Part shown: positions 38,190 through 57,759 of the stretch, in pieces
Layout of the letters: each line of letters opens with the position of its first letter
Numbering within the stretch: the stretch's first letter is position 1
NCBI GenBank assembly: GCA_963823665.1
Contig: CAWGMQ010000008.1
Location: 1,184,001-1,248,000, forward strand
Direction: 5' to 3'
DNA: 64,000 nt
Source: an uncultured Planctomycetota bacterium
GTDB lineage: Bacteria > Planctomycetota > Planctomycetia > Isosphaerales > Isosphaeraceae
Position numbers and translations under genes: made by a program
The notes under the pieces: generated by a model
The model's input: only the letters and a program-made list of their open reading frames with translations
Database searches by the model: none
Told to the model about the DNA's origin: nothing

Positions 38190-38274
38190 GACAACATCTG
38201 CTCACAGAACTGAACGCTTCCGTCAATACTATTCGCGTCCCTGTTTCCGTCCCCGTAATCTTATTAGGTAGAGA

Positions 38275-41200
38275 GTTTCAATCCTTGTTGTCGTGGATCT
38301 CGGTCAACTGCGGCCGAAGTCACTCAGGCATCTCGTCGCGCCAGAAGGTTTCAATCCTTGTTGTCGTGGATCTCGGTCAACTGCTCGCCGCCCAAAGATC
38401 CTGCCGAATCGCTGCGGAAGAAGTTTCAATCCTTGTTGTCGTGGATCTCGGTCAACTGCAAGAAGATCGCCAACCCTGACGCGCGCCCGGTGATGTTTCA
38501 ATCAGTGTTGTCGTGGATCTCGGTCAACTGCTGCTCGGGATCACTGTTGAGTGTCCGAAACTTGGGAGTTTCAATCCTTGTTGCCGTGGATCTCGGTCAA
38601 CTGCGCCAACGAATCGCAGCTCTCAAGACGACCAGCAGAGTTTCAATCCTTGTTGTCGTGGATCTCGGTCAACTGCACGATGCCGCGATGGCCCAGGCTT
38701 TCTGGGCCTATGTTTCAATCCTTGTTGTCGTGGATCTCGGTCAACTGCTTGCGGCCTTCGGCCTGAATCAGGGCAGCGTGGCGAGTTTCAATCCTTGTTG
38801 TCGTGGATCTCGGTCAACTGCACGCTGCTCGGCAGCAATCAGATTTCCGTAACGTGGTTTCAATCCTTGTTGTCGTGGATCTCGGTCAACTGCCCCGGTC
38901 AAACTCAAGCAAGCCTCTCGAGCCAAGGTGGTTTCAATCCTTGTTGTCGTGGATCTCGGTCAACTGCAATATCCCTCCACTGGTCGGGGAATCGCGGATC
39001 GGGGTTTCAATCCTTGTTGTCGTGGATCTCGGTCAACTGCAGCAAACACGTTGCCGGGGAGATCGCGTGTGCTTGCGAGTTTCAATCCTTGTTGTCGTGG
39101 ATCTCGGTCAACTGCTCGTTCTGCGCCAGGGCCAGGGCGGCCTCCTTGGCGTTTCAATCCTTGTTGTCGTGGATCTCGGTCAACTGCCCGGATCATTGGA
39201 TGCGACGCTCGCGACCCAGTCAGGTTTCAATCCTTGTTGTCGTGGATCTCGGTCAACTGCCTGATTTACATCTCCGAGGGCGAGGACGAATCCAAGTTTC
39301 AATCCTTGTTGTCGTGGATCTCGGTCAACTGCCGGAGAGCTAATCGCCCAGAACATGGCCGGCATCGGGTTTCAATCCTTGTTGTCGTGGATCTCGGTCA
39401 ACTGCGTTCCGGCGCTCCCGTCCGGCCGCTCGAGGGTTTGGTTTCAATCCTTGTTGTCGTGGATCTCGGTCAACTGCACCTGAAGGGGTTTGCCTTCGGG
39501 AAAGCCGCTTGGGTTTCAATCCTTGTTGTCGTGGATCTCGGTCAACTGCAAGGCGACGAGCACTGGATTGACGGCACTCGTAAGAGTTTCAATCCTTGTT
39601 GTCGTGGATCTCGGTCAACTGCCTGTGCCCCTAACCCCGATTGGCCCAGCGCCTCGAGTTTCAATCCTTGTTGTCGTGGATCTCGGTCAACTGCGCGAAG
39701 AAACGGCGGGTGGCACGGAACAGCAGACCGGGTTTCAATCCTTGTTGTCGTGGATCTCGGTCAACTGCCCCGCGCACGCCACCGAAGCGGCTGCCGAATC
39801 AGAAGTTTCAATCCTTGTTGTCGTGGATCTCGGTCAACTGCCTGGCACAGTCGCGGGATGTCCTCTGGTTTCAGGTGTTTCAATCCTTGTTGTCGTGGAT
39901 CTCGGTCAACTGCTCGCATCAGCAGTCAGATCCGAGGAACTCCCAGATGTTTCAATCCTTGTTGTCGTGGATCTCGGTCAACTGCCGCTGCGCCGATCGC
40001 CGTCCATAGACCCGATCCTGAGTTTCAATCCTTGTTGTCGTGGATCTCGGTCAACTGCTTCTCTGCACCTCGCGCGACGAGCTCGCGTTTACCTTGTTTC
40101 AATCCTTGTTGTCGTGGATCTCGGTCAACTGCACGGCCTGCTCGAGATTCGGGCTCACTGGATCACCGGGTTTCAATCCTTGTTGTCGTGGATCTCGGTC
40201 AACTGCGCTCGGAATAAGCTGATTGAGGTCAGAAGAGCCGAGTTTCAATCCTTGTTGTCGTGGATCTCGGTCAACTGCGGGATCTCTGACGCTTTCTGCG
40301 GCAGCTACCCATATGTTTCAATCCTTGTTGTCGTGGATCTCGGTCAACTGCGCTGGACGAACATTAGTCTCTGATGCCCGCACTGGCGTTTCAATCCTTG
40401 TTGTCGTGGATCTCGGTCAACTGCAAGTAATTCGTAATTGTCCGAAAACTTGCATGGAAGTTTCAATCCTTGTTGTCGTGGATCTCGGTCAACTGCCGCC
40501 GCCTCCTCCACCCACTGCCGTTGATCGATCCAGTTTCAATCCTTGTTGTCGTGGATCTCGGTCAACTGCGGCGTCGCCATCGCACGGCCTGACTACGCCT
40601 CCATGATGTTTCAATCCTTGTTGTCGTGGATCTCGGTCAACTGGCGCGGTCACGATCCGGGCCCGGGAGCTGGATGTAGTTTCAATCCTTGTTGTCGTGG
40701 ATCTCGGTCAACTGCCCCGATCACATGCGTCCCTACCGGTAATGGCGTGGGGTTTCAATCCTTGTTGTCGTGGATCTCGGTCAACTGCGCGCGGGCCGCG
40801 CATCGCGAACCCCTACAAGGATCGGTTTCAATCCTTGTTGTCGTGGATCTCGGTCAACTGCCCCAGCAGGCCATGCAACTCGCGATCACCGCCCAGATGT
40901 TTCAATCCTTGTTGTCGTGGATCTCGGTCAACTGCCCGTACAACCACCATTTCTCGACCAGCTTTGTTATGTTTCAATCCTTGTTGTCGTGGATCTCGGT
41001 CAACTGCGCCGGTCAAGCTCCTCCTGCCGGGCCCGTTGCTCGGGTTTCAATCCTTGTTGTCGTGGATCTCGGTCAACTGCCCCTGCCCCATTTGCCTAAC
41101 CCGAGGGGGGAACCCAGTTTCAATCCTTGTTGTCGTGGATCTCGGTCAACTGCACCTGGAACCCCTGCGCCCGAAGCTCGAGCAGATTTTGTTTCAATCC

Positions 41201-44200
41201 TTGTTGTCGTGGATCTCGGTCAACTGCCAGCACAGGGGCGGCAGTGCTCATCTACGACAACGGTTTCAATCCTTGTTGTCGTGGATCTCGGTCAACTGCG
41301 GCGGGCACCGCCCCCGAAGTCGCCAAGGAGAAGCTGTTTCAATCCTTGTTGTCGTGGATCTCGGTCAACTGCGCGCGGCTGACGGTCGCCTCAGGCCTCA
41401 GCGAGCAGTTTCAATCCTTGTTGTCGTGGATCTCGGTCAACTGCCCGAGCGCCGGCACAACGAATGTACTCGTCAACGGGGGTTTCAATCCTTGTTGTCG
41501 TGGATCTCGGTCAACTGCACGTCGGTCGGGGTGAGTGGTCCGCTGCCGATGTCGGGTTTCAATCCTTGTTGTCGTGGATCTCGGTCAACTGCGGCTCTTG
41601 AGGTGCTCGGATCGGCGCAGCTAGATCGGTTTCAATCCTTGTTGTCGTGGATCTCGGTCAACTGCATCGATATCTTCCACCACAAAGAGCGTCCGGTCTG
41701 GGTTTCAATCCTTGTTGTCGTGGATCTCGGTCAACTGCACGTTTGCGGTGTCAGGGCATTCTTTGCGGTTTCGGTTTCAATCCTTGTTGTCGTGGATCTC
41801 GGTCAACTGCACGGCCCGGAAGCAATCGAGCGATGGAACGGCATGGGGTTTCAATCCTTGTTGTCGTGGATCTCGGTCAACTGCCTGCCTGTTCCGCCTT
41901 CCACTTCTCCCACACTTCACGGTGTTTCAATCCTTGTTGTCGTGGATCTCGGTCAACTGCGCTCGCGTGGGGGTGGTTGTGCGGGCCACCGGCACAGGTT
42001 TCAATCCTTGTTGTCGTGGATCTCGGTCAACTGCAGGGGGGATCATCGCTCATCCTCTTCAGGGCGCTTGGTTTCAATCCTTGTTGTCGTGGATCTCGGT
42101 CAACTGCCGACTAACTGACCTTCGTCGTCGTGATCGTGGGAAAGTTTCAATCCTTGTTGTCGTGGATCTCGGTCAACTGCATTCGTCGGCACCTACGCCG
42201 ACTGGCAGGCCCTGAGGTTTCAATCCTTGTTGTCGTGGATCTCGGTCAACTGCCAGATCAAAGTTCATGCTGGCCTCGCTGTTAGGGGGTGTTTCAATCC
42301 TTGTTGTCGTGGATCTCGGTCAACTGCCCGGGGGCGTCCCGTCTCACGCGCACGTTGTCGCCTGGTTTCAATCCTTGTTGTCGTGGATCTCGGTCAACTG
42401 CACGAATGTTTGGTGGTTATCACCGACGCCGGATTCAAGTTTCAATCCTTGTTGTCGTGGATCTCGGTCAACTGCAACTGTCGGAGCCGAATCCCATTTG
42501 CGAGCGGATGAGGTTTCAATCCTTGTTGTCGTGGATCTCGGTCAACTGCCTTGGCTATCTCGATTGCGACGAACGTTGAAAATGGGTTTCAATCCTTGTT
42601 GTCGTGGATCTCGGTCAACTGCACGTGAACCGGCTTTTGGCTGTGGATAAGCCGTTGAGGTTTCAATCCTTGTTGTCGTGGATCTCGGTCAACTGCAACC
42701 TTATCGGCTCGGCACCAGGCCCGGTTTAGGAACGTTTCAATCCTTGTTGTCGTGGATCTCGGTCAACTGCATGAGCGCCGCGAGCCACGGCACTTACTTC
42801 AACCGCGAGTTTCAATCCTTGTTGTCGTGGATCTCGGTCAACTGCTTGCGGGTTCGGTCACGAATGCCATCCATCTCCTTGGGTTTCAATCCTTGTTGTC
42901 GTGGATCTCGGTCAACTGCCGTCGATCGTTTTAATCGAGGATGTCGATGCGTTGTTGTTTCAATCCTTGTTGTCGTGGATCTCGGTCAACTGCAGGTGGA
43001 GCCTACTTCGCTGGCCTGACGCTCAGCTAGTTTCAATCCTTGTTGTCGTGGATCTCGGTCAACTGCTTGACGTGATGATCGGCGACCCGTCGTATTCCGG
43101 GTGTTTCAATCCTTGTTGTCGTGGATCTCGGTCAACTGCCTCATCGGCCAGGCGCAGCAGCTCCCCATACTTGATGTTTCAATCCTTGTTGTCGTGGATC
43201 TCGGTCAACTGCCTTGCGGATTCCGGAAGGTAGGCCGTTACGATCGGGGTTTCAATCCTTGTTGTCGTGGATCTCGGTCAACTGCCGCTGTAGCAGGTTC
43301 CTGGCGTCCCTCCGTTATTCGGAGTTTCAATCCTTGTTGTCGTGGATCTCGGTCAACTGCCAGACCCAGGCAGCACGGGCCATGATTGGCCCAAATAGTT
43401 TCAATCCTTGTTGTCGTGGATCTCGGTCAACTGCAAATGGGCCCATCCACCCCAAGACGGGGAGGCCAGTGTTTCAATCCTTGTTGTCGTGGATCTCGGT
43501 CAACTGCTTCCGCCAGCTCCCCCGAGTCCGCCCCTGCCCCAGGGGTTTCAATCCTTGTTGTCGTGGATCTCGGTCAACTGCTGGATGTACTCAGCGACCG
43601 TGAGCGCACGCTCTTGATGTTTCAATCCTTGTTGTCGTGGATCTCGGTCAACTGCCGGACCCGTCCGCCTCGGCGTTGACATCGCCCTGGGGTTTCAATC
43701 CTTGTTGTCGTGGATCTCGGTCAACTGCCCGGGCGAGCGCGTAGAGCTCGAGCCGGGATATGTGGAGTTTCAATCCTTGTTGTCGTGGATCTCGGTCAAC
43801 TGCGCCCCATTGGAGCTCCACAATGACGCCACCGAATAGGTTTCAATCCTTGTTGTCGTGGATCTCGGTCAACTGCTGGAGGAACTGATTGATGAGCGAC
43901 GAGAGCGAGAGGTTTCAATCCTTGTTGTCGTGGATCTCGGTCAACTGCGAAATCGGACGCCGCGCGGCACAGGCTGGCGATTGCGTTTCAATCCTTGTTG
44001 TCGTGGATCTCGGTCAACTGCGATTATCTCGTTCCATTCCTTGCCCGAAGAGAAAAGGTTTCAATCCTTGTTGTCGTGGATCTCGGTCAACTGCATCGAC
44101 TCCATCGAGCCTTACGGCGAAGCGCAAAATGTTTCAATCCTTGTTGTCGTGGATCTCGGTCAACTGCACGACCACGTTCTCGCCCCAAAATGAGCGTAGT

Positions 44201-47200
44201 TGCTGTTTCAATCCTTGTTGTCGTGGATCTCGGTCAACTGCCAGTCGCCCACGCGACGTCACCAAGCCAGCGCTCAGGTTTCAATCCTTGTTGTCGTGGA
44301 TCTCGGTCAACTGCGATCGGACCGCGCAAGGGGAAGGTGACATACGTCGGGTTTCAATCCTTGTTGTCGTGGATCTCGGTCAACTGCAAAACGCATCTGG
44401 CTCGTCGAGGACCTGGTGCTGATGTTTCAATCCTTGTTGTCGTGGATCTCGGTCAACTGCTGCTCGCGTAGGCTGTAACAGGGCTCCCATCGGTTGGTTT
44501 CAATCCTTGTTGTCGTGGATCTCGGTCAACTGCGCCCAGTGTAAGAACGTGGGCGATCTCATTGCCAAAGGTTTCAATCCTTGTTGTCGTGGATCTCGGT
44601 CAACTGCATCAAGTGCCCGCTGCCTGACTGCGGTCAGACGAGGTTTCAATCCTTGTTGTCGTGGATCTCGGTCAACTGCCTGACTGGCGGGCTCGCCAGC
44701 AGCGGCGTCACGCCCGTTTCAATCCTTGTTGTCGTGGATCTCGGTCAACTGCCCCGCCCAGCAAGAGCCCGATCGTCGGGCCCAGGTAGTTTCAATCCTT
44801 GTTGTCGTGGATCTCGGTCAACTGCTCGCCTGGGGTTCCTACACCAACACGCAAGCGAAGAAGTTTCAATCCTTGTTGTCGTGGATCTCGGTCAACTGCG
44901 TGAGGCTGGGCCTGCTCTAACTCGTCGCACGTAAGAGTTTCAATCCTTGTTGTCGTGGATCTCGGTCAACTGCAACAGCACGTCGGGTGTCCCGACTGTC
45001 GGTTCAGTCGGTTTCAATCCTTGTTGTCGTGGATCTCGGTCAACTGCCCGTGATCAAGACGCTGATGGACATCATCCACGACGAGTTTCAATCCTTGTTG
45101 TCGTGGATCTCGGTCAACTGCAGGCAAGAAAGCACAGCCTGGCGAGATACGATGGATGTTTCAATCCTTGTTGTCGTGGATCTCGGTCAACTGCTTGAAA
45201 AACGATTACCTGATCACGATCACCTGAGAGAGTTTCAATCCTTGTTGTCGTGGATCTCGGTCAACTGCTTTCGAACGTCACTCGGAAGACCATGTCAGGA
45301 TTAGGTTTCAATCCTTGTTGTCGTGGATCTCGGTCAACTGCGGCTGTCCGGTATGTGGTGACGGAGTCCGTGAACCAGTTTCAATCCTTGTTGTCGTGGA
45401 TCTCGGTCAACTGCGTGAGCGACCTGGGCGACACCGTCTGGCGACTCGTGTTTCAATCCTTGTTGTCGTGGATCTCGGTCAACTGCGCGACTTACCGAAC
45501 CACGAGCTCCAGCGAGTGATCGGGTTTCAATCCTTGTTGTCGTGGATCTCGGTCAACTGCCGTGGCGATGCGGGCGCCGGCCAGGGCTATGGTTAGGTTT
45601 CAATCCTTGTTGTCGTGGATCTCGGTCAACTGCACGCCGGGATGGGCTCACATACCCCATACGGCACACGGGTTTCAATCCTTGTTGTCGTGGATCTCGG
45701 TCAACTGCCGGAGTGTTCGCCACCATTGCTACCGAAGGAATGTTGTTTCAATCCTTGTTGTCGTGGATCTCGGTCAACTGCAATCGGGATGTTCGCCACA
45801 CCAGTCGGATGGATATTGATGTTTCAATCCTTGTTGTCGTGGATCTCGGTCAACTGCACGAGGATCGCAGTGTCATCGGCCATCCGCTGTACAGTTTCAA
45901 TCCTTGTTGTCGTGGATCTCGGTCAACTGCCGCCAAAGTTCAGACAGGCGCGCGGCCGGACGCAGGTTTCAATCCTTGTTGTCGTGGATCTCGGTCAACT
46001 GCCAGCTCCAGCTTGCGGGCTTCGGCCATCCGCACGATGTTTCAATCCTTGTTGTCGTGGATCTCGGTCAACTGCCGGCAGAGCCAATCTGGTTGCGGCT
46101 GCGAAGTCTGGGTTTCAATCCTTGTTGTCGTGGATCTCGGTCAACTGCCACGTCCAAGAACATCGTCCTGAACACCGGCGCGAAGTTTCAATCCTTGTTG
46201 TCGTGGATCTCGGTCAACTGCCGTTTACAACTGGTATCCGGCGGCGGCGGCGGCCAAGTTTCAATCCTTGTTGTCGTGGATCTCGGTCAACTGCGCGCAC
46301 CAGAAAGACGGGATCGAAATCGCGTGGGTGTTTCAATCCTTGTTGTCGTGGATCTCGGTCAACTGCCAAGCCCGATTGGAAACTTTCTTCGGATTCTTTT
46401 TGGTTTCAATCCTTGTTGTCGTGGATCTCGGTCAACTGCATTGCGGCGGTCATCTGCTATCACATTCGCATTTTTGTTTCAATCCTTGTTGTCGTGGATC
46501 TCGGTCAACTGCTCTTTTCGGCCATCCTAGCGGCGATTCCGTGGACGAGTTTCAATCCTTGTTGTCGTGGATCTCGGTCAACTGCGAGTCCAGCCACCTT
46601 GCCGCCCACGCCTCCTTTGGGTTTCAATCCTTGTTGTCGTGGATCTCGGTCAACTGCGACCCGCTGTAACGGGCCATCTAGAGTATGTATCGAGTTTCAA
46701 TCCTTGTTGTCGTGGATCTCGGTCAACTGCCTGGGGATCGGTGACCGGGCTTCGTGGGCAGGAACTGGTTTCAATCCTTGTTGTCGTGGATCTCGGTCAA
46801 CTGCAGCCGTTGGGGAGCAGGGAGAGTTGCTCCAGATGAACGTTTCAATCCTTGTTGTCGTGGATCTCGGTCAACTGCGCGAATAGCACCAGTCGACGCA
46901 AGAGCTGGTGGAGTTTCAATCCTTGTTGTCGTGGATCTCGGTCAACTGCGGAACGAAACTTGATGCCCGTGCGCACGGGCGCCGCGTTTCAATCCTTGTT
47001 GTCGTGGATCTCGGTCAACTGCTCGCTCCGATAACGAACGCGGCCCCCACACAGATCCAGTTTCAATCCTTGTTGTCGTGGATCTCGGTCAACTGCGCCG
47101 TCCGAGGAGCTCAGCGGGGCCGATGAAGACAATGTTTCAATCCTTGTTGTCGTGGATCTCGGTCAACTGCATTCGGATCAATGATCGGTATTCACGGCTC

Positions 47201-47392
47201 GATGAATGTTTCAATCCTTGTTGTCGTGGATCTCGGTCAATTGCGCGCTCTTCGTCCACCGGGCAAAGGCAGAGGATGGAATGTTTCAATCCTTGTTGTC
47301 GTGGATCTCGGTCAACTGCACCTTGACCGATGCTGAACGACTAGCGCTTGTGGAGGTTTCAATCCTTGTTGTCGTGGATCTCGGTCAACTGC
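38275..47392 (-). CRISPR. CRISPR array of about 125 repeats (37 bp) and about 124 spacers (about 34-39 nt)
   Basis: Repeat on + is GTTTCAATCCTTGTTGTCGTGGATCTCGGTCAACTGC; on - it ends ATTGAAAC. Variant repeats at about 38495 and 38568 mark the trailer end. Manual count 125. Confidence 0.99.
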
Positions 47393-47564: not shown

Positions 47565-48200
47565 CTACTTGATGCAAATATTTCGGTAGCAGCAGTCGCG
47601 GCAACTGGACTTCCAGGAGGTTGCACGCGGGAAGCAGCCGGTCTGGATCACTTGCAGGATCTCACGGAGCACGGCCTCGGCCTCGGCGAAGTCGGCGTCG
47701 CTGAATTCGACGGGCACCACCTTGTGCTTGGAGCGAATGTAGCAGAGGAAGCCCCGGTGCACGGCGCACTGAAAGGTTTCGCGGATCAACAGGGCATAGA
47801 GCACCGATTGCATCTTCTGGTTGTGGTAGACCCGGCCTCGATCCAGCGCGAACTTGTAGTCGAAGGGAGCCCTCGACCCGTCGGCCAGTGTGAAGACCTC
47901 GTCCACCGATCCGCGCACGCCCAGCCGGACCGAGGAAAGCGGCACGTCGAACTGGCGCTGGACCACCCCGAGCTTCTTGCGCAGATAATTCGGATTGATC
48001 CGCCGCCGCTCCTCATGCGCCTGTCGGCCCTTCTGAACCAGAAGCCGCCGCTCCTGCCGTTCCGGCACCGCCAGGACGTGCTCGAAGTATGTGAACCGCG
48101 GGCAGAACAAGTGCTCGAGCACATGGGTGACCGTCAGCGGAAGCGGTGGCGGCTCAGGCCAAGCGGCCGCCGACTGGGCCAAAGTCGCGATCTCGTTCAT
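47565..48200 (-). CDS. cas4: CRISPR-associated exonuclease Cas4
   Basis: FCPR; RGSVD..DYK (RecB-like); Q...YA; C..C.Y..IC Fe-S cluster cysteines. Confidence 0.95.
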   Translation of the reverse strand: MNEIATLAQSAAAWPEPPPLPLTVTHVLEHLFCPRFTYFEHVLAVPERQERRLLVQKGRQAHEERRRINPNYLRKKLGVVQRQFDVPLSSVRLGVRGSVDEVFTLADGSRAPFDYKFALDRGRVYHNQKMQSVLYALLIRETFQCAVHRGFLCYIRSKHKVVPVEFSDADFAEAEAVLREILQVIQTGCFPRATSWKSSCRDCCYRNICIK

Positions 48201-48352
48201 GACAGGAATCTCCCCGGTCAACGGCGTCGTCCCGCTCGATCCAGCCGTAACCATGACTGACCGCGCGGCCCAAGGCGAAACCATTCGGCAAGTCGAGGTT
48301 GGTCAAGAGGCGGCCGCGAAACCAAAGGAATGGGGACGTCTAACTGCATCCT

Positions 48353-50852
48353 TCAGAAGACCTCGCAAGACGGTTCTGGATGACCAGGGACAGAAGAGAA
48401 AAGGCCACCATATTTCGCGCCGTACTTCATCGCGCAGAAAGGAATCCCGTCTGAATCCCGCAGGTTGTGACGAGTGTACCAGATGGGCATCTTCAATTCG
48501 TAACGACGGCGGTCACGTGGACGGAGCTTCTTTACCCGATCGGCGAACACCTCAGGAATGACACTACGCTGCGGATAGTCATCGGGCCGGGTTTTCAGGA
48601 GCGCGTCGTCCTCCCAAGGCCGTGGAGCGTCAAGCACGCCGGCGAGACGATTCTGATGGTCTTTGATCGTGCTCTGGATTCGCAGGAAGGCGTCGTCGTT
48701 CTCTAGTGCAAATCCCTGATAAACCTCCTCAACCAGCTCAACAAGCCGGCGTTCAGTCAGGGGTCCCTGACTACGGGAGAGCAAAGTCCACGTGGAACCA
48801 AGGATTCCGGCCGGTCGAGCGTAGACCCGCTCGCTTTTCTCTTCATGTCGATGGACAATTACACGACCACATTTCAAGAGGCGGGCTCGATTCACTCGCC
48901 CTGCCCGCTGGACGAGTGCGTCGAAGGGTGCGCACTCGGTCAGCAGTATGTCGTAATCGATGTCGAGCGACACCTCTACCACCTGCGTGGCTATGAGTAA
49001 GCGGGGACTACATTCGTTGATCTGTCTTTCCTTCTCCTCTCGGTGCTTGAAGATAAACTTGGAGTGATAGCAAATCGGCTTGAATTGGCGCAGGGCCTTG
49101 GCAACGGTCTGACATTGCTGGACAGTGTTGACGACGACTAGGACGCGAATTGGCTTCCCGTGGTCATTGCATTCGTTCCAAAGCTCGCGGAATCGCTGCG
49201 ATGGTCTGGGATCGTCGGTTCGCAAACCTTCAAGAAGCCATTCGCTCAGTGGCGTTTCGCAAACCTTCCAGTCGTTCCTAGCCTGCTCAAGCAGCGTCTT
49301 CTCCTCGATGACCGAGACGCCAGGTCGTTCGTGGGTAGACGCTCCAAGGGCCTCGAGCATGACAGCGCGGAGATTCGATGGCATCGTCGCGCTCATGATG
49401 AAGAAACGAGAGCCCCAATGGCAAAGGCGTCGGATCATCATTACCATCAAGCCCAGGGTGTGAGGCTCGTAGGCATGAACCTCGTCGATGATGATCGCCG
49501 CATCCGCGGCCGCGAACTCTTTCAGGGCCCAACGGCCGGCATGGAGCTGAGGAACGAGCAACTGATCCACAGTGCCGACGGTCACCGGAAAGAAGAAGTG
49601 GGATTCTTGCAGCACCCCGGCACGTACGTCAGCTCGGTCGGCCTCGGATTCCGCCTCAATTCCTGTGTCGCGCACAAGGTCCGCCGTGGAGTGAACGAGA
49701 ACCGACTTCGTGACCATGATCGTCGAAAAACTCCTTCATTCGGTCGTGAATGCTATTGGCCGTAACCATCGTGGGCAAGAGGAAAAGAATCTTTCGAGCG
49801 TGCCCGCGCTGGATTTGACGCAAGGCCCATCCAAGCGCCGCCTCGGTCTTACCGCTCCCAGTGGGAGCGATGCCGAGCACGTGCCCGACGACCGCGTCGC
49901 ACTCACTCTGAAACGGCGTGAATCCTCCGTACTCCGGAAGATTGGGATTGTTGGAGCGCCTTTCCTCGTGGCGGTTGCGTAGGTAATCGGGCACGAGTTC
50001 CGGCCCGACGCGGACGACACCCCGTTCCACGTCGTCGGTTGGGTCCTCGCACCGGGCGCCGCTCGCCATCCAATCGGCGGTCATCAGGAGGCCCTTCAGA
50101 AGGGTGAACAGGTCGTGGAATGCTTCCTTTCGCGCGTAGGTTTTCACCTGGTTTTTGACGAGTTCCAAGCAATTGTATGGGTAATTTCCATTCGGTCCGT
50201 TGCTCAGCTCCCGACGTACGTCCTCTGGGATTATTTTGTAGCGCGGCAAGGTCCAACCCTGCATTGCGAACATCGCCCTGGCTAGGTCTTGCGCCGCGGC
50301 AGCCACGACTTCAGGCTCGGCGATCCAGGCGATCGCGTTCACGAATTGATCCTCAGAAGGGAGGTCGTGCGAGACGAATCGGTGGTGCCCTGCCACGGCC
50401 ATTACTTCCAAGAGGCCCCCACCGGGAATCTTGGTCATCTGGTCCAGCGCTCGCGACGCCTCCTTGACGACCCAGATGCCGGCGATCTCATGGCGATAGT
50501 TAAGCCGAGTCGCCCTTTTGTAGGCGCTGTCATCCTGCGCCCTCATCATGTCTTGAAAGTTCGTCGTCAGCTTTCCCACATCGTGAAGCGCCACGGTCAG
50601 GAGACTCGATTTCAGGAAACGCTGCGGACTGATGTTGCAACGGGCCGCGACAGCCTCAATCAAGGCAGCGTGCTGCCGCACGAGCCCACACCAGGCGCGA
50701 TGAACAGCAACTATGTGCTCACGGTAGGTTTGTCGTCTTTGCCCTTTTTTGGCGTCTTCCCGCTTGGCGAGGGCCTCGTCGAGGAGCCGCCCTCCAGCGG
50801 TTTCGATTCGTAGCGGTGCACGGGGATCGTCCAAGGTAGCTCTCCATTCCAA
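48353..50852 (-). CDS. cas3: Cas3 HD nuclease-helicase, frameshifted near 49700 (start 50852 or TTG at 50834)
   Basis: EHI..LHDVGK..RHE..GHH..ADW (HD); APTGSGKTE, DEVH, MSAT, ATQVVEVSLDID, QRAGRVNR. Confidence 0.95.
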
Positions 50853-51598
50853 GACGAGATTGCCGGGCTGGATCGAAGGGGCTCCGATTGAGGCTCGATC
50901 TGATAACCGACGACGGGCGCCTCGGTTTCATCCAGCACGATTGGATCGGCCACGAATGTTACGATCGAGCGCCCGTTGAGACGACGAGGGCCGTCGGAGG
51001 CGAATTCGAAGCCGGTGGGAATGCGTTCGACCCTGGGTGCACGGATCACGCGGCTAAGGGGAACCCTGGCAATGTCCTCGTATAACCCATAACGTGGGCT
51101 GATCTCCCCGAACACCAGAACATGTGCCAAGCGCCGCTCAGCCGTGAGCGAAGCGTCCTTCACCCGCACGGCGACCGCCTTCATGAGGGCGTCGCTTGGC
51201 CCGGCAGTGAGAGGAAACGCCGGACGGCGAAAAGCACCAGCCAGTTCCTCAGCTCCGCGCGCATCAGGTGATTCGAAGACAAGGACAAGACGAGTTTCGG
51301 TCCAGTACTCCCGGAGCAAGACGTCGGTCTTGCTCTCTTTGCCTTCTTCGACCAGCTCGAGTTTCTGGAACTTCCACAGGTCGCGCATCCGGCCCTCGTG
51401 CGAGCCGCCAACCCCCAAGCGCAGGTTACGATCGACGACATAGCGGTACGCCCCAGGCAAGTCCACGCCCAATGATGCGCCCAATAGACCGACGAGGGAC
51501 GTATAGGGTGGGAGTGGGAACGTCCGGTGATAGGTCAGTGCCTCAGGGGGCCGCCAACTGGACACGGGGGCGATTGCTTCGACGACCACGATCGGCAT
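50711..51598 (-). CDS. cas5: Type I-B Cas5
   Basis: SSWRPP...HRTFPLPPYTSLVGLLGA; LLREY; PAFPLTAG.SD. Confidence 0.92.
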   Translation of the reverse strand: MPIVVVEAIAPVSSWRPPEALTYHRTFPLPPYTSLVGLLGASLGVDLPGAYRYVVDRNLRLGVGGSHEGRMRDLWKFQKLELVEEGKESKTDVLLREYWTETRLVLVFESPDARGAEELAGAFRRPAFPLTAGPSDALMKAVAVRVKDASLTAERRLAHVLVFGEISPRYGLYEDIARVPLSRVIRAPRVERIPTGFEFASDGPRRLNGRSIVTFVADPIVLDETEAPVVGYQIEPQSEPLRSSPAISSWNGELPWTIPVHRYESKPLEGGSSTRPSPSGKTPKKGKDDKPTVST

Positions 51599-52530
51599 TA
51601 CAAAGCCCCCTTCACTCCGAAGTGGAGGTTAACCCACCCCCGGATGGTTTCGAACGCCTCGCCGATCGTGAGAGTGCCCTCGGGAAGATTAGTGAACAAA
51701 CCGGCGCGGGCGCCGAAGCAGTGGTTCACCAAGATATCCCTGGAATCACTCACCGACTGCGCCAGGGCATCCACGTCGATGCACTCGTCATCACGCACCC
51801 CCGAGCGTCGGACCGACTCGAGGAAAAGTGGCACCTTGGCCGTCGTGACCGCCGCGGCGATGAACTTGGGACTGATGTCCGCCAGAAACCGCGACTGCCG
51901 GCCGCTGGACCAGAGATGCTGAAGCGCCCCTAGGAGAGAATTGACGCGGCGAGCCTTCTCCGCTGATTTTAGGTCCCAATCTTTCTTCGGCTCCTTGGCC
52001 GAGATCCCCTCACCGGGTCGATTCTTGCCGACGGCATCGAGCTCGATCAAGACGGTCCCGCGGTAGAGGCCGCCGTGGATCTCCGTCTCGAAGATGTTCG
52101 GCGTGCCCCCGGCCTCGACACCCATGTAGTTCGTGCCGAAATCAAGATCTCCCTCGTAGGGGTCGATCGCCAATAGAGGAGCAACCCGCACTGGGCTCGT
52201 CCGTTTATGTGTCCCGCCCTTTGAGGCATCCATGAACCCGAACAGATCGTCGTCGATGAATTTCTCCGGCAAGCACGCAGTGATCGCCGCCCCCTTTTTC
52301 TCTTTGGCGGCCGCGCCCTCGGAAAGTTCATGATTGAGAGTTCCGAGCTGATCCCTGAGAGCGCGACGAACAGCCTGGCTCGAGACATAAGGAAAAGTTT
52401 TCGAGCCACGGGTTAGTTTCTTGATGTTACTGACGTTGTCTGCCTCCTTGTCGCTCCCGTTGAGGGAGCCAAGCGACACCGGTGTGAGAAACGTTATGGT
52501 TAGGGATTTGGCGTCCTGAAGAGTTGGCAT
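51598..52530 (-). CDS. cas7: Type I-B Cas7 (Cst2/DevR family)
   Basis: PYVSSQAVRRALR, DDDLFGFM, KRTSPVRV, NIFETEIHGGLY; AAGGAG RBS. Confidence 0.93.
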   Translation of the reverse strand: MPTLQDAKSLTITFLTPVSLGSLNGSDKEADNVSNIKKLTRGSKTFPYVSSQAVRRALRDQLGTLNHELSEGAAAKEKKGAAITACLPEKFIDDDLFGFMDASKGGTHKRTSPVRVAPLLAIDPYEGDLDFGTNYMGVEAGGTPNIFETEIHGGLYRGTVLIELDAVGKNRPGEGISAKEPKKDWDLKSAEKARRVNSLLGALQHLWSSGRQSRFLADISPKFIAAAVTTAKVPLFLESVRRSGVRDDECIDVDALAQSVSDSRDILVNHCFGARAGLFTNLPEGTLTIGEAFETIRGWVNLHFGVKGAL

Positions 52531-52543
52531 CGGATCGTTCTCC

Positions 52544-52891
52544 TTAAGAAGTTGTGGTGGCGACGTTCTTGGTTTCACGAGTTCCGTAAAGGAAGCGGCT
52601 CAAGGCTGACACGACGCAGAACCCCCGAAACTCCTCGAATGTTTCCCGGTTGAAGACGGCCCCATCGAGTACGTCGCGAGGTATGTCGATGTCATAGCGG
52701 AATTGCAGCCTCGCCAGCTCATTCATGAAGTCGGCGGTCGTCCGCGTCTTTCGCAAGCGGAACAAAGCGCCACGCGCTCTCCCTCGCGATTCATTCTCAT
52801 CCTTGTCGTTGACCTTATCTGAGACGGCTTTGCCGATCTCACCCCCGAGCCAAGTCGCAGTCTTGACCATTCTCTGGTACATCTCATCCAT
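52544..52891 (-). CDS. cas11: Putative internally translated Cas11 small subunit (about 115 aa)
   Basis: In-frame ATG (MDEMYQRM...) inside cas8, preceded by AAGGGG-ACGCCG. Confidence 0.6.
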   Translation of the reverse strand: MDEMYQRMVKTATWLGGEIGKAVSDKVNDKDENESRGRARGALFRLRKTRTTADFMNELARLQFRYDIDIPRDVLDGAVFNRETFEEFRGFCVVSALSRFLYGTRETKNVATTTS

Positions 52892-54493
52892 CGGCGTCCC
52901 CTTCTGGCGTTCCACCTCGTAGAGCATGACGAAATCGAGGAGCGGCCGAACCGACCTCGCCTTGCCCGCTTCGGTGTGAGGGTTGATGTGAAATGCGTGC
53001 TGCTCCAGCAACGCGAGCACGCTCTCGCGCCGCAGGATAGCTGAGCACACCCGGTCTCGGACGAGCGTTCGGCCCTCGTCCTTGGCTTCAAAATCGACGA
53101 GCGTTGCGAAGAGTTTTTTGGGAGAACAAACCATCTTATTGCGTCGCGGAGCAGTTTCTTCGACGCTCTGCATCCGTTCGAAGAGGCGCGCCAGGTACAC
53201 CACGTCCCTGACCGACCAGAAGTCGCGGGCAAGCCACACATTCCCTTTCTTCGCCGCAGAGATGACGGCAAAACTGACGTGTCCTTGCTGCTCTGTAGCC
53301 CGGAACACCTCTTCCGCTGAAATTGGGGCTTCCGGTTCCTCCGCCTCCGACGCTTCGGGGACTTCAGCATCTTCGCTGTCAACCGGCTCCAGTTCTGATC
53401 TCGCTTCTTGCGCGGCCACCCGAGCGCGCTCCCGCAATACCTTTTCCTCTCGGCTGAGCTCGACCAAGGCGCGATGCAAGAATGCCAGAGCGACCTCGGA
53501 TCGTCCGCGGAAAAGAAAGGCGAGCTTTCGACCGCCAAGCAAAAGGTCGAAATTGCGATAGAGATTTGGATCGAGCTGAATCATGCTGCCCAGCGTCTCC
53601 ACAAGAGCGTTAGTGCGCCGAAGGTCCGATGACTCGGGGAAAAACACGTGCAGGTCGTCGTCTTGTTGATGAAAAAAGGCCACGGCTGGAACAAATTTGC
53701 CGACGAAGTCGGCCCTCCACCCGAGTCGAGGCCAATTCGAATTCCCGCTGATGAACGACCGACTTCCTCCCATGAGCGGAAAGGCGGTCTCCTTAGCCTC
53801 GACGACGGAACTCTCGGGCATCCCTGTAAGAAAGCAATTCCAGTCGTGTCGATTGGCGCCGACGCGAATCTCTACCTTGGGACGAACCTGATTGGGGCCG
53901 TCGATGAGCAGGCCAGCCGGGGGTCCCGGCTTTAGGCCGTTTTTCGCCAGGAAATCGTCGAGTTGCGCCTGGAGGTGCTTGAGTTCCGGGGGCAAGCGGC
54001 CTGGCGCTCGCACCTCTTTACCGTGATCGTCAGTGATCGATCCCCATGTCACCTGCTCGCGGGAGGGGCGTGCCGCCTTGTCAAAAAGGAGCGAGGCCAC
54101 CCCGGTCGCTCTAACCTTGGGGAATGTGACAAAGTCCTTCCTTGAGCGATCGTAGTAGAAGTTGTAGCTTGACGTCTCCCTGCGTTGTTTCTGGCTCGAC
54201 TTGTTGAAGTAGAGATCGACAAGCCGGTCGTAGGCCCACTCCAGGCAAGCCTGAACGCGGCTGGCGGCTCCGCTGACGACCAGGCGGTCGGCCCGGAGGT
54301 CGTCACGTTTCACATCACGAAACGAAGCGTCCACGCCACCCTTCAGTCCGCAGGCCCCAGAAGAATCCGTGTAGTTGGGCAATTCGTTCAAGATGCGATA
54401 GAGTCCAACTATTCCCGCATCGATCCAAGAATTTCCTGTGCGGAGAAACTCCACGGCCAAGATCTCGTCAGCCTTGGCTTTCGCTTTCGCCAT
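52544..54493 (-). CDS. cas8: Type I-B large subunit Cas8 (Cas8b/Cst1-like)
   Basis: TGNSWIDAGIVGL N-terminal motif; helical C-terminal domain; position between cas6 and cas7. Confidence 0.85.
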   Translation of the reverse strand: MAKAKAKADEILAVEFLRTGNSWIDAGIVGLYRILNELPNYTDSSGACGLKGGVDASFRDVKRDDLRADRLVVSGAASRVQACLEWAYDRLVDLYFNKSSQKQRRETSSYNFYYDRSRKDFVTFPKVRATGVASLLFDKAARPSREQVTWGSITDDHGKEVRAPGRLPPELKHLQAQLDDFLAKNGLKPGPPAGLLIDGPNQVRPKVEIRVGANRHDWNCFLTGMPESSVVEAKETAFPLMGGSRSFISGNSNWPRLGWRADFVGKFVPAVAFFHQQDDDLHVFFPESSDLRRTNALVETLGSMIQLDPNLYRNFDLLLGGRKLAFLFRGRSEVALAFLHRALVELSREEKVLRERARVAAQEARSELEPVDSEDAEVPEASEAEEPEAPISAEEVFRATEQQGHVSFAVISAAKKGNVWLARDFWSVRDVVYLARLFERMQSVEETAPRRNKMVCSPKKLFATLVDFEAKDEGRTLVRDRVCSAILRRESVLALLEQHAFHINPHTEAGKARSVRPLLDFVMLYEVERQKGTPMDEMYQRMVKTATWLGGEIGKAVSDKVNDKDENESRGRARGALFRLRKTRTTADFMNELARLQFRYDIDIPRDVLDGAVFNRETFEEFRGFCVVSALSRFLYGTRETKNVATTTS

Positions 54494-54494
54494 G

Positions 54495-55199
54495 TCATGC
54501 CTCCAGTCTCACGACCGTGCCGAAGCCTCTTGCGCTGCTCTTACCGATTCCCCAGTGGTCCGGAATCAGAAAGTTGACCCTGAAGGTTCCGCTAAATCCC
54601 AACAGACTCAAGCCCGGCTTCAGTTCCTCGAAGCCCGTGAACTCCAGGCAGGTTTCTGCCACCAAGCGAGTCGTGACGTTCAGGTCGACGCTCTTGCTCA
54701 AGGAGAGGAGATTGCCGATGAGGATTCTCTTCAGCAAGGCCGACCTCTCCGAGGCATCAACTCGTGACCAAACCTCGTGGTTCTCTTGGTTCAGCGCCAA
54801 ATAGGGCGTCAAGAATTCATATCGGATCATCTCAGCACATGGTCCGACCAGCACCCGGCTTGCGGTCACGGATTGATTCGTTACAACAAGCTCGTCCGGT
54901 CCCAGCCGGAGGTGGTCCGTGGCGGGTAGACCGCGCACAAGCACTGCCCCCGCTGCGAGCCCCATCACGGCGGCGTCTCCTCGGCTCGTGTCGTATCGAA
55001 TAAGCGGATGCTGGTAGAAAAAGCCGTTTCCGCTGTGATTGTGGAAATCTTTTCGAGATGTTAGGCCAATTATCGCTCCCCTAAGCCAGCGCGATTGTTG
55101 AAAGCCGAGTGGCTTACTCAGGGTAAGCCGGACGTCGCCGTGTTCAATGATCGCCGCAGTGTCGAAGGAAGCCGGGTGGAGTGCGACGCCAATGCTCAT
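54495..55199 (-). CDS. cas6: CRISPR endoribonuclease Cas6 (Cas6b-like)
   Basis: LRG..FHNH...YQHPLIRY; TPYLALNQEN; LIGNLLS; GIGKSSARGFG glycine loop. Confidence 0.92.
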   Translation of the reverse strand: MSIGVALHPASFDTAAIIEHGDVRLTLSKPLGFQQSRWLRGAIIGLTSRKDFHNHSGNGFFYQHPLIRYDTSRGDAAVMGLAAGAVLVRGLPATDHLRLGPDELVVTNQSVTASRVLVGPCAEMIRYEFLTPYLALNQENHEVWSRVDASERSALLKRILIGNLLSLSKSVDLNVTTRLVAETCLEFTGFEELKPGLSLLGFSGTFRVNFLIPDHWGIGKSSARGFGTVVRLEA

Positions 55200-55248
55200 T
55201 TACGCGCTCCGTTCATTTGCACGAGGGAAGCCGTCATCGTGGTAAAAG

Positions 55249-55319
55249 AATCCGTCGAGGAATGTGGCTCGAAAACACCAACATTTCAATCCTTGTTGTC
55301 TTGGACATCCGCATCGCCC
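55249..55319 (-). ncRNA. Mini-CRISPR / crRNA-like regulatory RNA: degenerate repeat, about 21-nt spacer, degenerate repeat core
   Basis: 55283-55305 ATTTCAATCCTTGTTGTCTTGGA matches the array repeat at 21/23; 55249-55261 AATCCGTCGAGGA is the repeat stem with a 5-nt loop deletion; the spacer matches 55832-55846. Confidence 0.8.
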
Positions 55320-55335
55320 GACGGATCCTCAGTTC

Positions 55336-55821
55336 TCAATATTCCGCGAATATCTTGCGCGCTCGCCGAATCTCGGAGTAGTATCGCCGCTCACTGATAT
55401 TGATCCTTTTCCGAAACTGCTCCCGGGTCAAACCTTCCCGCTCCGCGATGAGCAATTGGCGAAACAGCGGGATGCGATCGCACAGCTCTTTTGCATCCAA
55501 CTTCGAGATCATTGTCTCGCAATCCCGACTCGCGCTCTCATCTACGGCACTGATCGGGAGGGACTCATCGAGCTGAATCAATGGCGACCTCATGGCGCGG
55601 GCTCTCGCCCGTGCCCGTCTCCACAGCAAGCCAGGAATGTCCCCACCTTGAATGGTTGCACCACTCATTTTGAGAAATTGCTGAGTGGAGGAATGTCGCC
55701 GGATCTCACAGTAAAGATCGTGAGCGACGTCATCGGCGAACTCGGCGTAACGTGTCCTCCTGATGCGACTCGCGATCAGTTCGGTCAGGCGGACAACCGG
55801 GTCAGAGGTGCTCTCAGACAT
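55336..55821 (-). CDS. ECF sigma-70-like protein (about 161 aa) embedded in the cas operon
   Basis: ADDVAHDLY..I and GLLWRRAR.RAR (sigma2-like); LCDRIP.FRQLL...EGLTREQF..INISERRYYSEIRRARKIF (sigma4 HTH-like); GGAG RBS. Confidence 0.7.
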   Translation of the reverse strand: MSESTSDPVVRLTELIASRIRRTRYAEFADDVAHDLYCEIRRHSSTQQFLKMSGATIQGGDIPGLLWRRARARARAMRSPLIQLDESLPISAVDESASRDCETMISKLDAKELCDRIPLFRQLLIAEREGLTREQFRKRINISERRYYSEIRRARKIFAEY

Positions 55822-55831
55822 TTCACGGTCA

Positions 55832-55849
55832 CTCCAAAACCCCAACCAA
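55832..55849 (-). promoter_or_regulatory. Putative Cascade target site (TTG PAM plus 15-nt partial protospacer) over the RBS of the sigma-like gene
   Basis: Minus strand TTG-GTTGGGGTTTTGGAG versus spacer GTTGGTGTTTTCGAG. Confidence 0.7.
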
Positions 55850-55989
55850 CTTGCGCTCTACCTTCGTTATGACGCCAGTCGGGGCTCCGTCCTTCGTTTT
55901 TTTTGGATTTTCGGCGCTCTGGCGAGCACTGCCACGTACGCATGCATGGTGACGCGTCACCACGCGATCGTCCTTCAATGAGTGCGGCG

Positions 55990-56280
55990 TCAGATCACTC
56001 TGGTCAGCACCTCGTCCGCCACCATCTCCCTATCAAACCCCTGCCCAACAATGCGGACCTTTGCGAAGTCGTCTCGGCACATGGGGAAGACATAGACCGC
56101 GTCCGTTTCGAGATTGAGAAGCTCCATGCTGAACTGAATGATTTCTTCAACGCGGCTGCCTGCGACCTCGCCCAGGTAGACGCTCTTTTGGACACGCTGG
56201 AGTCCATAATCGAGGCATCGGTCACCTATTCTTTTGCGCGTTCGATCCTTTGAAATGTCGTAGACGACCCAAGTCAGCAT
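55990..56280 (-). CDS. cas2: CRISPR-associated Cas2
   Basis: WVVYDISKDRTR...YGLQRVQKSVY. Confidence 0.96.
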   Translation of the reverse strand: MLTWVVYDISKDRTRKRIGDRCLDYGLQRVQKSVYLGEVAGSRVEEIIQFSMELLNLETDAVYVFPMCRDDFAKVRIVGQGFDREMVADEVLTRVI

Positions 56281-57398: not shown

Positions 57399-57759
57399 TG
57401 TAGCCGCCCATCAAACCGCGCCGCGGACACGAAACCTAACCATCTCTCTCGACTCGCGCCGCAGCATCCTGTAAGCGACTTGCTTCGGCGCCTTCGGCTG
57501 CTTGGGTTGCCACATCCCGATCGCCGCGCCTCCGCAGCCCGCTTGCCGGCCCGGCCTTCCGCCATCTGTCCGAGGCTATCACGGAATGCTCATCGCGAGA
57601 CCTTGCACAAGCCATCCATCGACCTGAGCCGTGCGTGAACGGATCGATACTACATTCGCTCCGGTAACTGGTCAAGCGGCTACTGTGGACAAATTTCCCG
57701 TTCAAGTACCGAGCGGGCGGAGGACACATGCGAGGACATGGCGAGTGCTGTGTCACGAA

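Follow-up and report, generated by a model that had tools for sequence, protein, structure and literature searches.

A candidate guide RNA cassette that may place a sigma-like gene under Cascade repression in CRISPR-Cas loci of type I-B in Isosphaeraceae

A solo repeat and a matching site flank a sigma-like gene

In a type I-B CRISPR-Cas locus of an uncultured Planctomycetota bacterium (family Isosphaeraceae), a single degenerate CRISPR repeat stands apart from the array, just downstream of a gene whose 161-amino-acid (aa) product resembles extracytoplasmic function (ECF) sigma factors. The sequence that follows this solo repeat matches a site just upstream of the same gene, which we call ORF161 (open reading frame, ORF). 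The stretch analyzed, hereafter the window, is 64,000 nucleotides (nt) long (contig CAWGMQ010000008.1, positions 1,184,001 to 1,248,000), and coordinates are counted from its first letter. We consider it likely, from sequence comparison and by analogy with tested systems, that the solo repeat yields a guide of the CreR/CreA type with which Cascade represses, without cutting, the start of the transcription unit that begins with the sigma-like gene. The elements of the cassette are listed in the direction of transcription:

55847..55849, minus strand: protospacer adjacent motif (PAM) 5'-TTG-3', on the strand with the sense of the guide
55832..55846, minus strand: target (protospacer-like), GTTGGGGTTTTGGAG, covering a GGAG upstream of the ATG
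55336..55821, minus strand: ORF161, 161 aa, with a sigma2-like N-terminal domain, a linker and a sigma4-like helix-turn-helix (HTH)
55283..55319, minus strand: solo degenerate repeat (psi-repeat), 25/37 identical to the array repeat, with the TCC...GGA stem kept
55246..55282, minus strand: pseudo-spacer body, its first 15 nt (55282-55268) complementary and its nt 24-37 serving as 3' arm in a long-range stem

In its 3' part, with handle and stem, the solo repeat is identical to the array repeat at 21 of 23 positions, and its 8-nt handle reads ATTGAAAT versus ATTGAAAC in the array. It is the window's only site outside the array with at most 12 mismatches (the next best have 15-16), and its 5' end lies 16 nt past the ORF161 stop codon (55336-55338). 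Directly after the handle, the pseudo-spacer reads GTTGGTGTTTTCGAG on the minus strand from 55282. It matches the target at positions 1-5, 7-11 and 13-15, with mismatches only at 6 and 12 (13/15), and the target is 11-25 nt upstream of the ORF161 ATG (55821). These statements, from the solo repeat and its TTG-flanked match to the distances from stop codon and ATG, had been made in an earlier, sequence-only reading of the window, and they hold. The guide has the same sense as the mRNA strand and is able to pair with DNA, not with mRNA; antisense action on the mRNA was rejected for this reason.

When consecutive matches are counted from position 1 with every sixth base ignored, the target scores 13, and no other place in the window, whichever the strand, exceeds 8. 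With at most one mismatch allowed, GTTGGNGTTTTNGAG is found twice in the window, versus 0.09 matches expected. Without mismatches, the 13-position pattern occurs in the 16.46 Mb genome only at the guide and target sites; with one mismatch it occurs at 27 genomic sites versus 19 for a reversed control, which is chance level. A PAM of the form TTR followed by seed positions 1-5 and 7-11 is found once in the genome, at the target, and its reversed control is also found once. Because the reversed control is equally rare, uniqueness alone is a weak argument, and the place of the match and the comparison between loci carry the weight.

Guides and targets change together across related loci

Among 121 genomes of the family, 15 have a Cas6 homologue (E ≤ 1e-8), the window's genome included; a search with the array repeat also found arrays of related repeats in family genomes. 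In 10 of the 15 cas6 loci, the same order of target, sigma-like ORF, solo repeat and cas6 is present, with the solo repeat just upstream of cas6 (G000, which is the window's genome, G083, G084, G002, G069, G025, G021, G064, G085 and G081). The solo repeats of these cassette loci are degenerate at the 5' end and end in ATTGAAA(C/T); that of G085 ends in ATCGAAAC. No cassette is present in G098, where a WYL regulator gene is directly before cas6, in G108, where cas2 is directly before cas6, or in G003, G015 and G012, where other cas genes come before a more distant cas6.

In 8 of the 10 cassette loci, a same-strand site 526-681 nt upstream matches the guide from its first position onward. The PAM is TTG in six of these pairs and TTA in two (six TTG and four TTA over all 10 loci). 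The pairs are given below, with every sixth position in brackets and each target preceded by its PAM:

G000: guide GTTGG[T]GTTTT[C]GAG; target TTG-GTTGG[G]GTTTT[G]GAG
G083: guide GTTGT[C]GATTT[C]CAGCA; target TTG-GTTGT[G]GATTT[A]AAGCA
G084: guide ATTGT[A]GATTT[T]CAGCG; target TTG-ATTGT[A]GATTA[G]CAGCG
G002: guide TTATT[T]GATTT[A]AAGC; target TTG-TTATT[A]GATTT[T]AAGC
G069: guide CTTAT[C]GTTTC[G]AAAGC; target TTG-CTTAT[A]GTTTC[T]AGAGC
G025: guide CTGGT[G]ACTGT[T]GTGGG; target TTA-CTGGT[-]ACTGT[A]GTGGG
G021: guide CTTGT[G]AGTTT[T]CAAG; target TTG-CTTGT[-]AGTTT[C]CAAG
G064: guide CTGGT[G]ACTGT[G]GC; target TTA-CTGGT[T]ACTGT[T]GC

Guide and target are identical in all eight pairs at positions 1-5 and 7-10, in seven at position 11 and at positions 13-16, and in four at position 17. 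At position 6 a single pair is identical and at position 12 none is. From position 18 onward, identity is 0-3 of 8, with one stray 6 of 8 at position 22, and the match ends at position 15-17 in every pair. The seeds vary by locus (GTTGG, GTTGT, ATTGT, TTATT, CTTAT, CTTGT and CTGGT) and the targets change along with them. When all guides are compared with all loci, the cognate score (9-15) is the row maximum for eight of eight, and non-cognate scores are 4-8, save among four loci with the common seed CTGGT.ACTGT. For six loci, in none of 300 trials did a shuffled guide score as high as the true one; this happened in 4 of 300 for G083 and in 7 of 300 for G084. The target starts 25-46 nt before the start codon in seven of the eight loci (25-34 nt in six; 46 nt in G002); in G021 the script took a GTG at 17 nt, and an ATG is seen by eye ∼27 nt after the target start.

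During pairing within type I Cascade, every sixth base is described as flipped out (PMC5904413). As far as sequence alone can tell, these positions follow the periodicity predicted for pairing in a type I Cascade, and guide and target have changed in a compensating way from locus to locus. A protein operator or a duplication that drifts would not be expected to leave such a pattern. Covariation of guide and target in homologous loci, with variation concentrated at positions 6 and 12, had been named in the sequence-only reading as a check on the proposal; the identities of 1/8 and 0/8 at these positions over eight pairs bear it out. A chance match was rejected, given the next-best score of 8 in the window, the sole genomic pair, the shuffled-guide trials and the position-wise identity pattern.

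Searches beyond the family added no loci. A profile search with the ORF161 alignment found no related locus in metagenome contigs or genome contigs, a narrower alignment likewise found none, and Cas6 alone found none in the genome contigs; the covariation therefore rests on genomes of one family. ORF161 was found only in its own genome when 61 relatives were searched, and the profile of the ORF161 family found nothing in the 121 family genomes beyond the cassette loci already known. Two other places hold repeats of this kind: an orphan solo repeat of the same repeat family in G012:C59 (L055 about 10010-10048) and a two-repeat mini-array with 96-nt spacing in G014:C8 (L056 9907-10041). Both are far from detected cas genes, and a target was found for neither within 20 kb.

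The array and its PAM

38275..47392, minus strand: CRISPR array, 125 repeats and 124 spacers of 34-39 nt, with the leader at the 47.4 kb end

The array repeat, present in 125 copies, reads GTTTCAATCCTTGTTGTCGTGGATCTCGGTCAACTGC on the plus strand; the array is transcribed on the minus strand, so that the 3' end of the repeat is ATTGAAAC. Spacer 123 (38385-38422) matches three related genomes with 87-94% identity over 32-38 nt and with TTG 5' of the match each time. The gene that holds its protospacer encodes a phage portal protein (phrog_145, E 2.1e-36), and the site is present, again after TTG, in two IMG/VR viral contigs with a related portal gene. These five matches are copies of one protospacer and thus count as one data point for the PAM. 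The spacer-derived TTG agrees with the TTG or TTA at all ten guide targets, and the PAM of a tested bacterial type I-B system is reported as TTA (PMC10551041). An array-derived PAM compatible with TTG, on which the sequence-only reading had depended, is hence provided by the portal gene protospacer of spacer 123.

The array spacers had no match in the phage collection. Against their own genome they matched only another array and a repeated 57-nt flank, and in 16 viral contigs with a related portal gene spacer 123 alone matched. The other array is in the same genome and has a different repeat type, ending ...CCATTGAAGCG; one of its spacers (L007 1510-1544, G000:C10:179815-179858) is identical over 35/35 nt, and in the same orientation, to array spacer 15 (46295-46329). 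The 57 nt beyond the trailer end of the array (38200-38256) recur at 14 further genomic places with 81-95% identity, as well as in several relatives, and are a short dispersed repeat of unassigned kind.

ORF161 resembles ECF sigma factors

Homologues of ORF161 are rare. Four were found among 5.8 billion clustered proteins (one with 99% identity, two with 71% and one with 56%), and three of the four have the same length of 161 aa. The 99% identical copy, P0002, has 177 aa with a tail that reads into the solo repeat, like a one-base indel near the 3' end; P0003-P0005 are metagenome proteins. A profile of the ORF161 family found 11 cluster representatives among 1.84 billion. Of 15 aligned members, 6 match Sigma70_r4_2 and 3 match Sigma70_r2 at E ≤ 1, and 3 match Sigma70_ECF, one matching member (P0015) being probably an ordinary ECF sigma. 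Against the PDB, the family profile matched Mycobacterium tuberculosis SigL (2e-4) and SigE (1e-3, over positions 24-160). In 401 genomes of the phylum it gave weak matches only, and the nine open frames checked from these are ordinary ECF sigmas (Sigma70_r4_2 in 9/9 and Sigma70_r2 in 8/9, above threshold).

The AlphaFold (AF2) model, made from 16 sequences, has two helical domains and a disordered linker (residues 82-105), with a predicted local distance difference test (pLDDT) score of 79.3. The C-terminal domain resembles sigma region 4 of SigB, sigma-28 and SigH (Z 6.2-6.3, root mean square deviation [rmsd] 2.6-3.2 Å, 65-69 aligned residues). The N-terminal domain resembles sigma2 of SigE (Z 5.6, rmsd 4.2 Å, 72 aligned) and is tied with unrelated helical proteins; the Z-scores of both domains are under the structure tool's caution line of 8.

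A complex predicted between ORF161 and residues 7-400 of the beta' subunit of its own genome supports binding, with a score of 0.80 versus 0.00 for the best of three controls, a level attained by 116 solved complexes out of 157 and by 2 of the 215 mismatched pairs. The runs have at least 40% of their contacts in common, with a partner pLDDT of at least 64. Predicted contacts are between ORF161 residues 27-41 (EFADDVAHDLYCEIR) and beta' 258-331, which holds the clamp-helix sequence. We take these to be the region-2.2 helix and the clamp helices, respectively, as in solved holoenzymes. Since sigma and beta' are a textbook pair, passing the prediction shows likeness to solved complexes, not binding.

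The ORFs at the same position in related loci belong with ORF161 by hidden Markov model (E of 8.8e-15 in G064, 5.3e-11 in G002, 2.9e-5 in G083, 1.3e-4 in G021 and 2.8e-3 in G085), and those of G084 and G069 link via G083 by BLASTP (2e-51 and 1e-11). Between groups the sigma-like ORFs are 20-31% identical versus 73-83% for Cas7. Several related assemblies have many frame breaks in cas genes, and the apparent breaks in their sigma-like ORFs are therefore uninterpretable. ORF161 is therefore called a divergent, fast-evolving ECF-sigma-like protein and not a proven sigma factor, on the strength of profiles and models.

Context, promoter region, and 3' structures of the cassette

The cassette is always directly before cas6, in two contexts. 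In G021, G083, G084 and G069, it follows a WYL-WCX regulator gene and precedes cas6-8-7-5-3-1-2-4-array; in G000, G025, G085, G081 and G064, it follows cas1-cas2. Two further elements were annotated in the window:

55850..55925, minus strand: putative promoter region with an A-tract and then the -10-like hexamers CATAAC (55871-55866) and TAGAGC (55860-55855), by eye
55317..55330, minus strand: 5' stem arm, forming a 14-bp stem with 55259-55246 that brackets psi-repeat and pseudo-spacer

Anchored on the PAM and compared by eye, most of the 10 loci show an A/T-run, a CCGCTT-like box, 16-19 nt and a TAnnnT-like box, which in most loci ends ∼6-20 nt before the PAM. The clearest promoter-like case is GGGTAGTATAT in G025 and G064, and the window copy is the least clear. 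If the promoter seen by eye is right, transcripts would begin a few nt ahead of the PAM, and Cascade would cover the part that is transcribed first. A hairpin followed by eight T is present on the plus strand at 55880-55905, corresponding to a minus-strand A-tract ∼35-55 nt upstream of the PAM, and A- or T-runs are found at a similar distance from the PAM in 10 of 10 loci. From the start of the pseudo-spacer to cas6 there are only ∼45-85 nt, in which a promoter for cas6 alone would hardly fit.

In the window, the 3' stem arm is followed by a U-run, and the fold of the region has a z-score of -2.65. In G025, G064, G085 and G081, a stem with another sequence (CCGTGGAC / GTCCACGG) lies at the same position with T-runs after it, and G083, G084 and G021 have a conserved hairpin after the pseudo-spacer instead of a bracketing stem. 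When five loci were folded to a consensus, the stem was found again for the four CTGGT-type loci and that of the window was misaligned, so that the fold gives no covariation count; the TCC/GGA stem pairs of the psi-repeat are invariant in the five aligned loci. Judging from these layouts, the 3' structures probably determine where the guide ends on its 3' side and may curb transcription that runs on into cas6. A search of Rfam with 54400-56400 gave nothing but a chance-level snoRNA match (E 0.5).

Predicted autoregulation by Cascade

Cas6 would cut the solo repeat 8 nt before its end and leave an RNA with the handle AUUGAAAU and the pseudo-spacer. Cascade would load this guide RNA, whose first 15-17 nt match the TTG-flanked site immediately past the putative promoter of the sigma-like gene, and bind the target. 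Pairing would end at about position 17, so Cas3 would not be licensed, and, by analogy with tested type I-B systems, bound Cascade would block RNA polymerase. The repressed unit would begin with the sigma-like gene, contain the guide and probably feed cas6-cas8-cas7-cas5-cas3. The outcome would be negative feedback in which Cascade and guide shut the promoter of the guide, of the sigma-like protein and probably of the Cascade genes, and free Cascade sets its own level. Depletion or inhibition of Cascade, whether by a load of CRISPR RNA (crRNA), by an anti-CRISPR or by loss of cas genes, is predicted to cause a burst of sigma-like protein.

Reports on related effectors are consistent with the repression step. 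Short seed matches are described as sufficient for binding, whereas interference needs extensive pairing (PMC5904413). Type I-B, I-E and V-A effectors are reported to repress their own promoters with crRNA-like (cr-like) RNAs of partial complementarity (10.1101/2023.03.10.532045), and in a bacterial type I-B system, guides of up to 26 nt are reported to repress with no cutting (PMC10551041).

What the released protein would do is less certain than the repression itself. It may act as a relay that redirects RNA polymerase to other promoters, a role that we hold to be possible at somewhat less than even chances; a toxic role is taken up below, and the rest of the probability falls to another regulatory role or to none. 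A more specific and tentative proposal is that a dedicated ECF-like sigma is silent while Cascade is free and intact, and that an anti-CRISPR or crRNA overload sends polymerase to a back-up response, which could be more cas expression, other defences or growth arrest. In its boldest form, the sigma-like protein would also dock on Cascade, giving RNA-guided control of polymerase by a type I-B system in the manner of dCas12f-sigmaE.

Several observations weigh against this scheme. The targets of G085 (TTA-CTGGTAATTGTAGAGGG, mismatch at position 8) and G081 (TTA-CTGGTACCTGTGG, mismatch at 7 and nothing past 12) are weakened, and the sigma-like ORF of both loci looks truncated or lost. These two targets were found by a mismatch-tolerant scan; a strict seed scan gives the other eight. 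The targets of G021 (L058 about 9497-9516) and G025 (L060 about 9066-9046) have no base opposite guide position 6, after which positions 7-16 or 7-17 are still in register. The missing base recurs in two separate loci, making an assembly error unlikely. All comparative loci are from one bacterial family and are not independent, and because cas loci such as those of G098 and G108 do without the cassette, the sigma-like gene is dispensable for the cas operon. A scan for consensus sigma-70 promoters in 55100-56100 gave no sites. The guide pairs with the template strand. In type I-E repression, a template-strand block deep inside genes is the weaker orientation, and near the start site orientation should not matter. 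A clear second repeat-like piece is present in G002 only, leaving the 3' end of the guide undefined, and the stem and U-run may end many transcripts before cas6, which would loosen the link to cas expression. The cas3 of the window is split in two frames, and its homologue in G002 is a single 858-aa ORF; either a sequencing or assembly error or a true defect, with only regulatory activity left, could explain the frame change. Lastly, ORF161 alone has no Pfam or NCBIfam match at E ≤ 0.01 and is below the curated ECF domain cut-offs, and Foldseek found nothing at E ≤ 0.001, though ECF sigmas head both of its lists. The sigma likeness that had been assigned to ORF161 from its sequence is thus backed by relatives, profiles, domain-wise structure and the model of beta' contact, but it does not emerge from searches with ORF161 alone.

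Alternative explanations

The sigma-like protein could be the toxin of a CreTA-like addiction module, for instance by capturing core RNA polymerase, with the guide as antitoxin, such that cells with lost or inhibited Cascade stop growing. We regard this as rather unlikely. The cassette does behave as a discrete insert: 10 of the 15 related cas6 loci have it, G098 and G108 do not, and it is found in two contexts, after a WYL regulator gene or after cas2. The sigma-like protein evolves much faster than Cas proteins, its predicted docking on the beta' clamp helices would suit capture of polymerase, and protein toxins repressed by an effector have been reported (10.1101/2024.01.05.574328). Several copies of the sigma-like ORF also look broken, but they are in assemblies in which cas genes are split as well, and sequencing errors could be the cause. 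Moreover, CreT toxins as described in PMC10120712 are small RNAs, whereas the cargo here is a two-domain protein of 161 aa with an intact HTH. In G021 the guide matches its target perfectly despite an apparently broken ORF, which fits regulation of cas genes too.

Alternatively, the sigma-like protein could bind Cascade and recruit polymerase to the target, giving positive feedback by RNA-guided activation as in dCas12f-sigmaE. The layout is parallel, with a target upstream and a guide downstream of the sigma gene and the same polarity from PAM to gene in 10 of 10 loci, and for rpoE-dcas12f, upstream targets with a downstream guide are interpreted as probable positive autoregulation (PMC12259090). 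One chain from an "RNA-guided transcription complex" (9n9q_C) is also among the fold matches of ORF161, at Z 4.9 and tied with many unrelated entries. The geometry does not agree. According to PMC12259090, transcription with dCas12f-sigmaE starts 46 bp past the target adjacent motif, which here would fall inside the ORF, since the ATG is only 25-34 nt past the target start in 6 of 8 loci, and Cascade with a full-length RNA would cover the start codon. Promoter-like boxes are seen by eye upstream of the PAM and not downstream, and Cas3 together with a 124-spacer array indicates an immune system rather than an exapted nuclease-dead effector. We consider activation very improbable.

The least credible alternative is that the 15-mers are protein binding sites or duplicated promoter pieces and the solo repeat an inert array relic: both 15-mers are upstream of genes and relic repeats are described as common around cas loci (PMC10120712), but an operator is not expected to vary exactly every sixth base while covarying elsewhere, one copy always comes right after the 8-nt handle and the other always after TTG or TTA, and the similarity always ends near position 17.

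Relation to known systems

Repression by a Cascade guide, as we propose it, places the cassette in kind with cr-like RNAs of the CreR/CreA type and within the observations of mini-arrays near cas6 and of cargo regulation by Shmakov et al. (PMC10120712). As in CreR/CreA (10.1101/2023.03.10.532045, as far as described there), a degenerate repeat keeps the 5'-handle part, the PAM is cognate, the target is at or next to a promoter, here a putative one, in a cas locus, complementarity covers ∼11-17 PAM-proximal nt, and binding without cutting is expected to give autorepression that senses free effector. In those systems, the first gene behind the target is a cas gene or RNA toxin, rather than a sigma-like gene, and two repeats are present, whereas most copies here have one repeat and a bracketing stem. 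The guide here is also downstream of the cargo and probably on the transcript that it represses.

Beside cas6 of type I-B systems, an enrichment of repeat-like sequences is described, at 27% in the survey of Shmakov et al. (PMC10120712). The mini-arrays described there have predicted targets with the right PAM, and their cargo includes toxin-antitoxin genes and transcriptional regulators with targets upstream. The type I-B examples given target a site between mini-array and cas6, and the cargo cases are of type I-D with the cargo downstream of the mini-array; both differ from the order seen here. The haloarchaeal type I-B CreTA is likewise a small cassette among cas genes, in which the seed of a cr-like antitoxin guide matches the promoter of the adjacent element. 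CreTA makes Cascade indispensable, and this neighbour of the guide is described as a small toxic RNA that sequesters a rare tRNA (PMC10120712; 10.1101/2023.03.10.532045); the neighbour here is a conserved 161-aa ORF.

Two known systems tie an ECF sigma to CRISPR components. DdvS is an ECF-type sigma whose gene is part of a CRISPR-cas locus and which is linked to cas expression, but it is held by a membrane anti-sigma and drives a cas promoter with no control by a guide RNA; no anti-sigma gene is seen beside ORF161. In dCas12f-sigmaE, an ECF sigma gene is linked to a CRISPR-type effector and guide, with targets upstream of the sigma gene, and a nuclease-dead effector is reported to recruit polymerase (PMC12259090). 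The effector here is Cascade with cas3, and the geometry and short match fit a block. The closest experimental parallel in PAM and guide length is the type I-B system of Parageobacillus thermoglucosidasius, with PAM TTA and guides of 11-26 nt that repress with Cas3 present (PMC10551041, as reported there); those guides are engineered, whereas the one here is natural.

What differs from these systems is the sigma-like protein as cargo, a guide downstream of the cargo inside the repressed unit, and a bracketing stem in place of a second repeat. A full-text literature search found no publication that pairs a sigma factor with control by a cr-like RNA, and the word "sigma" is absent from the main texts of the key cr-like RNA papers, PMC10120712 included, whose supplements may hold such loci. 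The earlier statement that no described system has a sigma factor as cargo agrees with this search but was somewhat overstated, because mini-arrays near cas6 and cargo regulators are described in PMC10120712.

Known self-targeting cr-like RNAs tune cas expression or guard CRISPR loci with RNA toxins. The gene predicted here to be directly under Cascade control is sigma-factor-like, and hence could switch an entire group of promoters. If true, the state of a CRISPR effector (free, saturated or inhibited) would set a transcriptional programme, and an anti-CRISPR attack would lead directly to a response of the cell. The ten loci are a ready set of natural compensatory mutations that shows which positions of a guide matter, and the two targets with a missing base at the flipped position bear on the binding rules of Cascade and on the design of type I repression tools.

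The surrounding type I-B locus

The CRISPR-Cas locus of the window is of type I-B. It has Cas6b, a large subunit, Cas7 (Cst2/DevR), Cas5, Cas3, Cas4, Cas1, Cas2 and an array, and the order on the minus strand is cas1, cas2, a gap of 144 nt, ORF161, solo repeat, cas6b, large subunit, cas7, cas5, cas3, cas4, leader and array:

57398-56274, minus strand: cas1, upstream of the cassette
56280-55990, minus strand: cas2, directly upstream of the cassette
54495..55199, minus strand: cas6b (Cas6b_C 1.1e-30, Cas6b_N 9.9e-11)
52544..54493, minus strand: large subunit, cas8b by position, without a family match
51598..52578, minus strand: cas7 (Cst2/DevR, type I-B; TIGR02585, 217 bits, cut-off 72.75)
50711..51598, minus strand: cas5
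48353..50852, minus strand: cas3 (HD and helicase), two overlapping frames with a frame change near 49705
47565..48284, minus strand: cas4 (TIGR00372, 121.5 bits)

The large-subunit protein is 55-60% identical to the product of the same-position gene in related loci. The locus is mixed: cas6-cas3 are like those of the group in which the cassette follows a WYL regulator gene (Cas8 55% identical), and cas1, cas2 and cas4 are like those of the group in which it follows cas1-cas2 (76-84% identical).

Upstream of the cas locus, an ordinary ECF sigma gene (60796-61419) overlaps a gene for a Ser/Thr protein kinase (58929-60839), a pair not seen beside related cas loci. Just upstream of cas1, orf177 (57436-57969) encodes a protein without a Pfam match, whose first ∼70 residues are 58-68% identical to the WYL-WCX regulators encoded before the cassette in G021, G083, G084 and G069, and which may be a truncated regulator.

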